Shown here piece by piece: positions 4,478-12,165 of a stretch of 64,000 nt of DNA; position 1 is the stretch's first letter; each line of letters starts with the position of its first letter. This DNA comes from a virus. The translations under genes were made by a program, and so were the position numbers. Under the pieces are notes generated by a model. That model made no database searches. It was not told the origin of the DNA and saw only the letters and a program-made list of their open reading frames with translations. The DNA is taken from IMG/VR virus record IMGVR_UViG_3300028394_000035, one strand, 5' to 3'.

Positions 4478-5359
4478 ATGTTTATTCGTTCTTTAATTGC
4501 TGGTACTGTTGCTCTGACTGCGGTTGCTCCAGCATTTGCTGCTCCTGCCTTATCAGATGTACAACCAACTGACTGGGCATATGGAGCAATCCAAAATCTC
4601 AATGCTCGTTATGGATGTCTTGTTGGTTATCCTAATGGCACTCTGAAGCCTGCTGCTGATGCAACTCGCAGTGAAGTATTTGCTTTGACAAATCATTGTC
4701 TGGATAACATCACTCAATTTTACACACAAGCAGACGCACAACTTGCTGCATCTCTTCGTGCCCAAATTGGTGCCACCAATAAGCGTGTAACCACTCTTGA
4801 AGTTGCTGCTGTAACTGCAACACAACGTCGTCAGTTAGGCGTTGGTAACTATGGTGGTATTGCCTTTGCTGGCAATGCTGCTAACTATCCAGGTGTAACA
4901 CCATTGGGTAATCGTGTATATGAATCAGGTGTGACACTTCAAGGTCGTCTAAGGGCACTTGATTTGGGCAATCAGTATGCTATCTCTGCTCGTCCTTATG
5001 TAACCTTTACTTCCACTCCTAACTATGTAAGTGGTGGTGTATTTGGTGGTGGTCTTGCTACTCTTGATATTCCTCTTTCACGTAGGACTCTTGCCGATGG
5101 AACTAAAGTATCTGCTGCTAACCTCTATGTTGGCGCTGGTGGTCAGGTGGGTGGCAATCAAAGTGCTGGTGTCGGTGTAGTTGGTGCCGAAGTATCAGTA
5201 GCAAAGAACATTGTTCTATTTGCTGATGCCAAGATTCCTTTTGCTGAAACTGGCGCAGAAACCTTTGGTTCTACCAGAGTTGGTCGTGCCACTTATAACT
5301 ATGGCAGTGGTCAAGGTTACAATGTAACTGGAACCGTTGGCGTGGGTATCAAGTTCTAA
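4478..5359 (+). CDS. Secreted SLH-domain protein with a short outer-membrane beta-barrel (cyanobacterial porin-like N-terminus)
   Basis: Signal peptide ending in AFA; SDVQPTDWAYGAIQNL..RYGCLVGYPNGT...TRSE (SLH motif of SomA/B porins); coiled segment; amphipathic strands; C-terminal Phe (GVGIKF). Confidence 0.75.
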   Translation: MFIRSLIAGTVALTAVAPAFAAPALSDVQPTDWAYGAIQNLNARYGCLVGYPNGTLKPAADATRSEVFALTNHCLDNITQFYTQADAQLAASLRAQIGATNKRVTTLEVAAVTATQRRQLGVGNYGGIAFAGNAANYPGVTPLGNRVYESGVTLQGRLRALDLGNQYAISARPYVTFTSTPNYVSGGVFGGGLATLDIPLSRRTLADGTKVSAANLYVGAGGQVGGNQSAGVGVVGAEVSVAKNIVLFADAKIPFAETGAETFGSTRVGRATYNYGSGQGYNVTGTVGVGIKF

Positions 5360-5366
5360 TTTTGGT

Positions 5367-5576
5367 ATGACGATCACAACCGAAGACGGCAATCGTCAAA
5401 ATATGTTTGCTGTCGAACCTAAAATGTACATTACGGAGAAAGACATGGAAGAACACGAACAAGAAACTTATGCTCAAAGGGCTGAGAAACTAAATGGGAG
5501 ATTAGCAATGCTGGGATTTGTAATTGCCGTTGGCACTTATTTGACAACTGGCCAAATACTTCCTGGAGTATTCTGA
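5367..5576 (+). CDS. hli: High-light-inducible protein
   Basis: AEKLNGRLAMLGF chlorophyll-binding motif and TGQILPG C-terminus; ATG at 5367. Confidence 0.95.
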   Translation: MTITTEDGNRQNMFAVEPKMYITEKDMEEHEQETYAQRAEKLNGRLAMLGFVIAVGTYLTTGQILPGVF

Positions 5577-5898: not shown

Positions 5899-6594
5899 AT
5901 GAAAATTGACTTACATAAATTCTTTCAGTATTACGATGAGAAGAATCCAAAACACGTTGCAGCAGTAGAGCAACTTGAATTGGACTTGATTGATTCACCA
6001 TTAAGTGAGGATACCTCAAACTGGGTTAGAATTTTTAGAACAAAAATAGAAAAACCCAAGTCTGATATTCGTTTAGAAGTTCCTTATTATCCACAGACTG
6101 ATAATTATACAAATGCAGAACGAACTTGTAACTCATCTGCCTGTGCGATGTGTCTTGAGTATTTCAAGCCAGGAACTCTTAAAGGAACAAAAGGAGATGA
6201 TGCTTATATTCAAAAAGTATTTGCCATCGGTGATACAACTGACCATTCCGTACAGACAAAAGTTCTCGCAAATTATGGAATTCAGTCAAATTTTAGTTAT
6301 AATCTTTCTTTTGCTGATCTTGATAAAAGTCTTAGTGCTGGCAAACCTGTTGTTATTGGCATCCTACATCGTGGTTCTTTGTCTAATCCTACGGGCGGCC
6401 ACATGGTTGTAGTGATTGGTAAGACCCAGAGTGGTGACTATGTTGTAAATGACCCTTATGGATCTTTGAATGATGGTTATACAGGTGATGTTTATAATGG
6501 CAAAGGTGCTATCTATAAGAAATCAGATCTATCTGCTCGTTGGTGCCCAAATGGTAATGATGGGTGGGGAAGAATCTTTGATGTAAAAAAGTAG
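5899..6594 (+). CDS. Peptidase C39-like (papain-fold) protein with N-terminal extension
   Basis: PYYPQTDN..RTCNSSACAM (Cys), GGHMVVVIG (His), YVVNDPYG (Asp); late-promoter-like CTAAATA at 5807-5813. Confidence 0.85.
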   Translation: MKIDLHKFFQYYDEKNPKHVAAVEQLELDLIDSPLSEDTSNWVRIFRTKIEKPKSDIRLEVPYYPQTDNYTNAERTCNSSACAMCLEYFKPGTLKGTKGDDAYIQKVFAIGDTTDHSVQTKVLANYGIQSNFSYNLSFADLDKSLSAGKPVVIGILHRGSLSNPTGGHMVVVIGKTQSGDYVVNDPYGSLNDGYTGDVYNGKGAIYKKSDLSARWCPNGNDGWGRIFDVKK

Positions 6595-7061
6595 AAAACT
6601 CTATTCCTAATAAAGGAGTAGATCTTATTAAAGAGTTTGAGGGTTGTCATTTACAGGCATATCCAGATCCTCTATCAGGTAATCTTCCGATTACTATTGG
6701 TTGGGGAAGCACCAGAGATTTGAATGGAAAACCATTTAAACTGGGTCAAAAGATATCACAAAAAGTTGCTGATGATCTTTTGATATCTCAGATTGAAAAA
6801 GAATTTCTTCCTACACTTTCAAAAATACCTTATTGGAGTGAGATGTCTGATGGACAACGTGCTGCACTTCTTAGTTTTTCTTATAACCTCGGTGCTGATT
6901 TCTATGGTTCTGCAGATTTTACTACAATATCTGCTAGATTAAAAAATAAAGAATGGGATAAAGTTCCTGATGCTTTGTATCTTTATCGTAATCCTGGGTC
7001 AAATGTAGAAGCAGGATTAGCACGAAGAAGAAAAGCAGAAGGAAAACTTTGGGTTTCTTAA
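6582..7061 (+). CDS. GH24 (phage lysozyme) reading frame lacking its own start codon
   Basis: Frame opens after TGA at 6579-6581: VENSIPNKGVDLIKEFEGCHLQAYPDP...ITIGWG...ALLSFSYNLG...GLARRRKAEGKLW. The catalytic region lies upstream of the track's TTG at 6720. Confidence 0.9.
   Translation, partial: CKKVENSIPNKGVDLIKEFEGCHLQAYPDPLSGNLPITIGWGSTRDLNGKPFKLGQKISQKVADDLLISQIEKEFLPTLSKIPYWSEMSDGQRAALLSFSYNLGADFYGSADFTTISARLKNKEWDKVPDALYLYRNPGSNVEAGLARRRKAEGKLWVS
6585..6622 (+). promoter_or_regulatory. Candidate programmed -1 frameshift signal (A_AAA_AAG plus 3' stem-loop)
   Basis: GTA AAA AAG TAG in the C39 frame; stem TCTATTCCT (6600-6608) / AGGAGTAGA (6614-6622), 8 nt after the slippery heptamer. 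Confidence 0.8.
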
Positions 7062-10920: not shown

Positions 10921-11079
10921 AGTTAGGAAATGAAGATAAAACTTTACGATTCCTCACATTCCCGCTAACCAAGACCTATGGGAATTCAAATACGTCTTTT
11001 TACCTACACTGGAGGGTGGTGTAGGAATATCGTCACCAGTTCGTTCCCCCGAACTCATATTTACTACCCTTTTAATTCA
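10921..11079 (+). ncRNA. Structured psbA 5' leader, probably a PhotoRC-II-type cis-regulatory RNA
   Basis: Stems ATTCCC/GGGAAT around CTAACCAAGACC, CCTACAC/GTGTAGG (11003-11025) and AGTTCG/CGAACT; position matches the known PhotoRC-II motif. Confidence 0.6.
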
Positions 11080-12165
11080 ATGACTACTGCTACAATTGCT
11101 ACACGCTCTAATACTACTAATTTATGGAATCATTTCTGTGAGTGGGTAACCTCAACTGACAATCGTTTATATGTTGGTTGGTTTGGTGTATTGTGTATTC
11201 CAACATTACTTGCTGCTACTGTATGTTTCATTATTGCCTTCATCGGTGCTCCTCCTGTGGACATAGATGGTATTCGTGAACCTGTCGCTGGATCTTTACT
11301 CTATGGAAACAACATTATCTCAGGAGCCGTTGTCCCCTCCTCCAATGCAATCGGACTACATTTCTATCCAATTTGGGAAGCTGCTTCCCTTGATGAATGG
11401 CTCTACAATGGGGGTCCGTTCCAACTCGTCGTGTTCCACTTCCTCATTGGCATCTATGCTTACATGGGACGAGAATGGGAACTTAGCTATCGATTAGGTA
11501 TGCGTCCTTGGATCTGTATTGCGTATTCAGCACCAGTTGCTGCTGCCTCTGCTGTATTCCTTGTGTATCCTTTTGGTCAAGGTTCTTTTAGTGATGCGAT
11601 GCCTTTGGGTATCTCAGGCACATTCAACTATATGTTGGTATTCCAGGCAGAACACAACATCCTTATGCACCCTTTTCATATGATGGGAGTTGCTGGTGTC
11701 TTCGGTGGTTCATTATTCTCTGCGATGCATGGTTCACTTGTAACCTCTTCATTGGTTCGTGAAACCACAGAAACCGAAAGTCAGAACTACGGTTATAAGT
11801 TTGGACAAGAAGAAGAGACCTATAATATTGTTGCTGCTCACGGATACTTTGGAAGACTTATTTTCCAATATGCTTCGTTCAACAACTCACGTTCACTTCA
11901 CTTCTTCCTTGCTGCCTGGCCTGTTGTAGGCATCTGGTTCACTGCTCTTGGTGTATCCACGATGGCATTCAACCTTAATGGATTTAATTTTAACCAGTCT
12001 ATCGTTGATAGTCAGGGACGTGTTGTAAACACCTGGGCTGATATTCTTAATCGTGCTGGTCTCGGTTTAGAAGTGATGCATGAAAGAAATGCACATAATT
12101 TTCCTTTGGACCTTGCTGCTGCCGAGTTAACTCCTGTTGCTCTTACTGCACCTGCAATCGGTTGA
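11080..12165 (+). CDS. psbA: Photosystem II D1 protein
   Basis: Full D1 (361 aa) from ATG 11080: [31 protein letters not shown]; no intron. Confidence 0.99.

Follow-up and report, generated by a model that had tools for sequence, protein, structure and literature searches.

A candidate -1 ribosomal frameshift between a C39-like peptidase and a GH24 lysozyme in a viral genome and its cyanophage relatives

The peptidase and lysozyme reading frames

We analyzed a peptidase-lysozyme locus in a 64,000-nucleotide (nt) stretch of DNA from a T4-like cyanophage (IMG/VR record IMGVR_UViG_3300028394_000035), the whole of which we refer to as the window. An open reading frame (ORF) for a predicted peptidase ends there at the slippery heptamer A_AAA_AAG, and a lysozyme lacking a recognizable start codon continues in the -1 frame. 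This arrangement suggests a candidate programmed -1 ribosomal frameshift, as proposed in a preliminary description of the locus. The features are as follows.

5899-6594, plus strand: zero-frame ORF of 231 amino acids (aa), the predicted short product, ending GAT GTA AAA AAG TAG (...FDVKK-TAG); from the sequence, the ORF list and a PF13529 match
5899-6063, plus strand: N-terminal helical module of about 55 aa (IDLHxFFxYYDEKNPxHV...); from translations of relatives and helices of the structural model
6562-6570, plus strand: G-rich stretch GGGTGGGGA, the "Shine-Dalgarno (SD)-like" element of the preliminary description; encodes the conserved G-W-G
6585-6591, plus strand: slippery heptamer A_AAA_AAG, in phase with the peptidase frame; from the sequence
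6592-6594, plus strand: zero-frame stop TAG directly 3' of the heptamer; from the sequence
6600-6622, plus strand: hairpin, the proposed 3' stimulator, with 9 base pairs (bp), one of them G-U, and loop AATAA; begins 8 nt past the heptamer
6591-7061, plus strand: -1 frame continuation of 156 codons (GTA at 6591 to TAA at 7059-7061), comprising a linker and a GH24 Phage_lysozyme domain
6614-6629, plus strand: AGGAG (6614-6618) and in-frame ATT (6627-6629), a rival internal start; from the sequence

Most of what the preliminary description had read at this locus held. The sequence and the ORF list place the heptamer in phase and directly before the stop, and folding returned the same stem (arms 6600-6608/6614-6622; dG -10.7, z = -2.85 against shuffles). 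The -1 frame has a TGA at 6579-6581 and runs open from 6582 to the TAA at 7059-7061. It translates as KK-VENSIPNKGVDLIKEFEG... and encodes a complete lysozyme by sequence and Pfam match, with no ATG, GTG or TTG ahead of the catalytic FEG. The predicted fusion has the length given earlier, 387 aa (231 + 156), with the junction ...FDVKK|VENSIP.... The in-frame ATT had been put at 6626 and lies at 6627-6629; the AGGAG 8 nt ahead of it doubles as the 3' arm of the hairpin.

The G-rich stretch had been described as SD-like. It is present, ending 14 nt before the heptamer, but it encodes a conserved DGWGR motif and is equally found in peptidase genes with no lysozyme behind them, and it does not stand as independent evidence. 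The window is A-rich and contains AAAAAAG 37 times, against 40 expected from shuffles, so that in a single genome the heptamer carries no significance of its own. What gives it weight is where it lies and that it is conserved.

Pfam profiles matched both reading frames well above their cut-offs: Peptidase_C39_2 (PF13529) in the zero frame (56.3 bits, cut-off 24) and Phage_lysozyme (PF00959) in the -1 frame (76.7 bits, cut-off 22.3, spanning the whole profile, positions 1-125). The motif EFEG with the catalytic Glu, part of the N-terminal xEG motif, is present in the window and conserved in all junctions that we compared (see below); judged by its sequence, the lysozyme is an ordinary GH24 domain. 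In the peptidase, C82, H168 and D185 are invariant in 29 sequences and represent a putative catalytic triad. An AlphaFold (AF2) model of the peptidase (predicted local distance difference test score, pLDDT, 74) has a papain-like fold. Foldseek matched this model to the C39 domains of PCAT1 and ComA, a CdiA-CT toxin, staphopain, the pseudomurein endoisopeptidase PeiR and the C39-like protein 3erv of B. anthracis. These matches are generic papain-like ones (E value about 1e-4, template modeling (TM) score about 0.4), so no substrate can be read from the fold search, and a sequence comparison with solved structures returned no close relative (best E value 0.75). The locus had been described as encoding two cell-wall enzymes; this stands for the lysozyme, whereas for the peptidase the data give a fold and an invariant Cys, His and Asp, and no substrate. 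The peptidase domain is fused to lysozyme in three different arrangements, and it is only from this repeated fusion that we infer that it may cut peptidoglycan.

The N-terminal module, with helices at residues 5-8, 17-29 and 41-48 of the model, had no match in a Pfam profile search. In the cultured phages DSL-LC02 (L004:2339-3010) and DSL-LC03 (L005:2082-2750), peptidase and lysozyme are separate genes, each starting with the same module of about 50 aa (IDLHNFFKFYDE.NPNH...); those of DSL-LC02 are separated by a further ORF. The lysozyme of the window could obtain the module only through the fusion. Because the separate lysozymes carry their own copy, we speculate that the module matters for both enzymes, perhaps in targeting or assembly.

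Conservation of the junction among relatives

We compared 185 IMG/VR loci and ten loci from records of cultured phages, namely S-PM2 (three records), S-SRM01, S-CREM1, DSL-LC02, DSL-LC03, ACG-2014f and two isolates of S-CAM7. After removal of identical junctions, 75 distinct peptidase-to-lysozyme junctions remained. In 59 of them, an in-phase slippery heptamer precedes a lysozyme in the -1 frame, the heptamer being A_AAA_AAG in 55, A_AAA_AAA in one and U_UUU_UUU in three (the S-CAM7 group). Five junctions have the lysozyme in the -1 frame and no heptamer, ten are in-frame fusions, and in one (DSL-LC02) the lysozyme is a fully separate gene in the +1 frame. An in-phase heptamer is thus found at 59 of the 64 split -1 junctions. 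As far as sequences can speak, it is this comparison across relatives, not any single genome, that decides the case.

The heptamer is kept at sites where the encoded protein does not ask for it. A is the third base of the codon preceding the Lys pair in 55/55 A_AAA_AAG junctions (GCA 28, GTA 25, GAA 1, ACA 1), against a background of 33% A at the third base of Val, Ala and Thr codons elsewhere in these genes. Likewise, the Lys pair reads AAA AAG in all 55 junctions, compared with 6 of 39 KK pairs (15%) elsewhere in these genes, and a Lys-Lys/Arg site elsewhere in the same peptidase varies freely. The zero-frame stop follows the heptamer directly in 46 of the 55 junctions and one codon later in the other nine. 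The two S-CAM7 isolates (L087:1292-1338 and L088) have a T8 run read as U_UUU_UUU, with a start-less lysozyme in the -1 frame.

Neither the five -1 junctions that have only their own start nor the peptidase-only loci carry a heptamer. Peptidase genes without a lysozyme behind them end in GRIFS or GRIFT followed by the stop, with neither KK tail nor heptamer; hence the heptamer goes with the start-less lysozyme and not with the peptidase. The peptidase ORFs of two loci (L020 and L021) end ...FDVK-TAA, which is half of the KK tail, with no lysozyme detected downstream. They may represent the remnant of a lost frameshift cassette.

A hairpin accompanies the heptamer. In most heptamer-class junctions, the segment from the heptamer to LIKEFEG folds as a single hairpin starting at a distance of 2-8 nt from the heptamer, with z scores between -3 and -7 relative to dinucleotide shuffles; junctions with an additional overlapped start do not follow this pattern, nor do a few others. 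In-frame fusions without heptamer (L092-L100) gave z values of -1.2 to +1.8, and no comparable hairpin was found at the junction in the -1 junctions lacking a heptamer. At least four unrelated pairs of stem arms occupy the same position among the relatives:

CTCTACTCC/GGAGTAGAG, given as CTCTAC(T)CC/GGAGTAGAG, in the window and S-PM2
CAACACCACA/TGTGGTGTTG
CCAACTAAC/GTTAGTTGG
CCCCTC/GGGGGG

S-CAM7 adds a fifth stem, a 12-bp bulged hairpin that begins 6 nt after the T8 run. The loops are between 5 and about 40 nt long, and the distance of the 5' arm from the heptamer is constant even though the encoded linker varies in length and sequence.

Covariation was counted within the three larger stem families. 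Paired cells amounted to 97.5%, 90.9% and 93.8%, compared with 10-55% when the 3' partner was slid by 1-3 columns. The families contain 4, 4 and 3 doubly changed pairs, and the observed covariation score was reached by 0, 5 and 0 of 500 shuffles each. Compensatory exchanges include C-G to U-A in L132 and L170 and A-U to U-A in L063, and in each of these an amino acid change in the lysozyme N-terminus is paired with a change in the linker. Conservation in homologs, which the preliminary description had named as a test, was therefore found for both elements: the heptamer is kept at synonymous sites and the stem at a like distance with covariation.

Natural fusions and expression of the lysozyme frame

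Some relatives encode as one ORF what the frameshift would produce. Four contigs from four samples (L009-L012) and L077 have seven A rather than six; each is a single ORF, and the junctions, ...FDVKK-VENS... or ...FDIKK-VESP..., match exactly what the frameshift predicts. The hairpin is retained in all of them. ACG-2014f and the L092-L100 group are also in-frame fusions, and S-CREM1 has the same two domains fused in reverse order. Both domain orders have families in PHROGs (phrog_3617 and phrog_10051), the reverse fusion being phrog_10051, "endolysin".

In ACG-2014f (L086:1314-1345; NC_026927 gp211), the fusion is the zero-frame product and its linker contains an in-phase A_AAA_AAG, followed after 5 nt by an 8-bp stem-loop with a GGAGGG/CCCTCC core. 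The -1 frame ends there after one codon (GTC TGA), and in the A7 variants a stop would come 11 codons after a -1 slip. Frameshifting in the ACG-2014f layout would yield the peptidase alone, and the direct and inverse layouts would both keep both products. This inverse layout is found in one lineage and the A7 contigs, and both heptamer and stem are missing from L092-L100, the in-frame relatives closest to it, which is why we treat it as a lead.

In the lysozyme frame, no ATG, GTG or TTG precedes the catalytic motif in 26 of the 59 heptamer junctions, and a TTG is the only canonical start in a further 17; in the stem family carrying GTTAGTTGG/GTTGGTTGG, this TTG sits within the stem's 3' arm. 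Each of the five -1 junctions that lack a heptamer has an ATG or GTG of its own, overlapping the stop as ATGA or GTGA in four of them. The association between lack of a heptamer and presence of an own start was significant before any correction for shared ancestry (Fisher P = 2.6e-4). All 56 complete start-less lysozyme ORFs are intact, with a median ratio of nonsynonymous to synonymous substitution rates (dN/dS) of 0.16 over 239 pairs. We conclude that purifying selection acts on the start-less lysozyme.

In S-PM2 and S-CAM7, whose genomes are complete, PF00959 matches once per genome, at the start-less lysozyme. The nearest record to the phage of the window, a 32-kilobase fragment (G001), gave no lysozyme match. 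Public annotations miss the frameshift: in S-PM2 and S-CAM7 the lysozyme was called as a fragment of 72-90 aa from an internal ATG ("lysin" in S-CAM7), or the pair was left as "hypothetical protein".

Proposed mechanism and rival explanations

Given these comparisons, we consider it highly probable that the locus is a programmed -1 ribosomal frameshift site of the dnaX/IS3 type, and S-PM2, S-CAM7 and dozens of uncultured relatives most likely share the same layout. Ribosomes on the peptidase ORF would meet A_AAA_AAG with the zero-frame stop next and the base of the hairpin at the mRNA entrance, 5-8 nt downstream. Most would terminate and release the 231-aa peptidase. A fraction would slip back by one base, with tRNA-Lys(UUU) re-pairing from AAG to AAA, and read through the short linker into the GH24 lysozyme, giving a 387-aa fusion of N-terminal module, peptidase and lysozyme. 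This fusion would be the only expressed form of the lysozyme, because the lysozyme of the window appears to have no initiation signal of its own. The steps are drawn by analogy, and we infer that slippage occurs, its efficiency, the set ratio of products proposed in the preliminary description and a need for both products; the signals, their position, conservation and covariation, the natural in-frame fusions and the selection on the lysozyme frame are the output of the computation.

The tRNA complement is consistent with such slippage. All short-type tRNA matches were typed with ARAGORN in two picocyanobacterial genomes, the complete one of Synechococcus sp. MIT S9451 and the draft of Cyanobium sp. 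N.Huapi 1H5; both contain a single tRNA-Lys(UUU) and no tRNA-Lys(CUU). A sole tRNA-Lys(UUU) fits the strict G at position 7 of the heptamer. A_AAA_AAG is exceptionally shift-prone in E. coli because both codons are read there by a single tRNA-Lys, and about half of bacteria share this situation (PMC5009743). ARAGORN found no tRNA genes in the 64-kilobase window, so that no phage tRNA-Lys is present here to alter decoding of the slippery site.

Several points weigh against a frameshift. Its support is wholly comparative, the junctions are phylogenetically related so that the counts overstate their independence, and the two picocyanobacteria are stand-ins and not known hosts of the phage. The lysozyme has an ATG or GTG of its own in nine of the 59 heptamer junctions (seven overlapping the stop, two with another ATG), and initiation and frameshifting may coexist at these nine. 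The hairpin of the window is modest (9 bp, three G-C pairs). A consensus scanner reads positions 6600-6632 as terminator-like (nine pairs, then TCTTATTAAA), a score that is probably a by-product of the A+T-rich coding sequence. Finally, some family stems reach within 2 nt of the heptamer, nearer than the usual 5-9 nt, unless their weak basal pairs are already melted.

A first rival explanation has the lysozyme translated alone and no fusion made, either by reinitiation after the TAG or from a non-canonical start (ATT at 6603, or ATT at 6627 behind the AGGAG at 6614-6618). The spacing of 8 nt between AGGAG and ATT in the window would suit it, and the overlapped ATGA or GTGA starts of L002, L036, L043, L062 and L037 indicate that coupling is used at the junction elsewhere. 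We nevertheless regard it as improbable. Only 9 of the 59 heptamer junctions combine an ATT with an SD-like sequence, the codon otherwise being ATC, ATA, GTT or TTA, and we rejected the ATT as a general mechanism on this count; the combination, which the preliminary description had named as a possible refutation, is hence not conserved. With a start at 6627, just four residues would precede the catalytic Glu, whereas in relatives with a true ATG this codon lies 13 residues before FEG. Separate translation would also leave unexplained the heptamer conserved at synonymous sites, the covarying stems and the natural in-frame fusions.

The shift could instead arise in transcription, if RNA polymerase slipped on the A6 run and added one A to some transcripts, from which standard translation would yield the fusion. 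The shift site is indeed a homopolymer run, S-CAM7 has a T8 run and A7 variants exist at the DNA level. The conserved features are, however, those of a ribosomal event, namely the phase, the G at position 7, the adjacent stop and the downstream hairpin at 5-8 nt. In known cases of stem-stimulated transcriptional slippage, the stem lies upstream of the run. Efficient slippage by bacterial RNA polymerase is reported for runs of nine A or T (PMC5009743), compared with six A in the window. We consider this explanation very unlikely for the window, and transcriptional slippage may contribute at the T8 run of S-CAM7, which is of borderline length.

Even less credit is due to the possibility that an assembly or sequencing error has split a plain fused gene whose true sequence is A7. 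The contigs L009-L012 and L077 do encode the in-frame fusion with A7. Yet A6 followed by the stop recurs in 55 distinct junctions from many independent metagenome assemblies and in both the original S-PM2 record and that of a re-sequenced deletion mutant, and S-CAM7 arrives at the same layout with a different run in two isolates. An equally slight chance remains for the lysozyme frame being a decaying, unexpressed remnant that lost its start, or the hairpin a transcription attenuator unrelated to recoding. The annotated fragments of 72-90 aa in S-PM2 and S-CAM7 and the terminator-like score of the window hairpin would be in line with it. Against a remnant stand the 56 intact ORFs out of 56 analyzed, their dN/dS of 0.16 and the absence of any further Phage_lysozyme match from the genomes of S-PM2 and S-CAM7. 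Stems of the other families are not followed by T tracts beyond coding sequence, and an attenuator is unlikely and would in any case supply no start codon. Overall, each refutation named in the preliminary description that could be run in silico, including the A7 error, turned out in favor of the frameshift, which supports that prediction at the level of sequence comparison.

A more far-reaching interpretation is possible, and we offer it as tentative and somewhat doubtful. Here the locus would encode an evolutionarily tunable two-product cell-wall hydrolase of which both forms are needed, with lineages switching among direct (window, S-PM2, S-CAM7), inverse (ACG-2014f, A7 variants) and two-gene (DSL-LC02, DSL-LC03) layouts. 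The shared N-terminal module would assemble a hetero-oligomeric lysin, its stoichiometry set by frameshift efficiency, and this would be the first recoding-controlled endolysin. If so, a very abundant group of aquatic phages would have it as their main lysis enzyme, since the S-PM2 and S-CAM7 genomes have no other Phage_lysozyme match.

The frameshift itself, if true, would correct annotation across a clade of T4-like cyanophages (Kyanoviridae). It would identify a candidate for their long-unclear lysis enzyme, with the only Phage_lysozyme match of S-PM2 and S-CAM7 being frameshift-dependent, and give the recoding field a case that is well conserved and comes with two slippery sites and numerous natural variants of the stem. 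The prediction can be tested directly in culture with S-PM2 on Synechococcus WH7803.

Elsewhere in the window, the region 4478-5576 contains two overlapping ORFs. One has an SLH domain (PF00395, 32 bits) and a C-terminal part that is rich in Gly and has Phe as its last residue. It overlaps by 23 nt the other, an ORF of 79 aa (5337-5576) whose sequence, judged by eye, resembles a high-light-inducible protein. A psbA-like ORF of 395 aa lies at 10978-12165. Cellular D1 proteins align with it only from residues 31-37 on, so the listed ATG is probably upstream of the real start, or the protein has an N-terminal extension.

Comparison with known systems

In the accessible literature, we found no description of a frameshift at a peptidase-lysozyme locus, nor of recoding in cell-wall hydrolases, and a comprehensive review of recoding (PMC5009743) does not mention lysozyme, endolysin or cyanophage. 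The closest parallel in its signals is E. coli dnaX, which yields tau and gamma. Like the window, it combines an A_AAA_AAG heptamer with a 3' stem-loop a few nt downstream and an upstream G-rich stretch. As proposed for the window, its slippage is tied to a sole tRNA-Lys(UUU) and its two products share a common N-terminus (PMC5009743). ACG-2014f has the same layout as dnaX, its zero frame encoding the long form and its -1 frame ending after a single codon. In the window, by contrast, the shift would extend the protein where in dnaX it truncates it, the genes are unrelated and a coding constraint accounts for the G-rich stretch.

The logic of a start-less downstream domain is that of the IS3 family, where the upstream ORF is fused to a catalytic domain lacking its own start by a -1 shift that has a 3' structure and in many cases takes place at A_AAA_AAG, close to where the upstream ORF ends (PMC5009743). 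In OrfA/OrfAB, for example of IS911, the upstream product has its own function, as we propose for the peptidase (PMC5009743). The IS3 proteins are DNA-binding proteins and transposases, whereas those of the window are predicted hydrolases, and the overlap of the two frames is here only about 10 nt.

Phages likewise use -1 frameshifts that give a short and a C-terminally extended protein, as in gene 10A/10B of T7. The same outcome as proposed here is reached by the conserved -1 frameshifts of phage lambda gpG/gpGT (PMC5009743) and of other tail chaperones. The lambda and T7 cases concern structural or assembly proteins and use other slippery sites (G_GGA_AAG in lambda), and no cell-wall hydrolase is among them.

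Two-form lysis enzymes are themselves familiar. The endolysins Lys170 and CTP1L/CD27L are each made in two forms from one gene by way of an internal translation start, and the forms can associate into hetero-oligomers. As proposed for the locus of the window, one lysis gene gives a long and a short product sharing a domain. The endolysins differ in that they rely on alternative initiation and share a C-terminal binding domain, whereas here recoding would leave the N-terminal module and the peptidase in common. Mechanistically, the candidate frameshift is a textbook one, the heptamer and stem of dnaX used with IS3-style logic.

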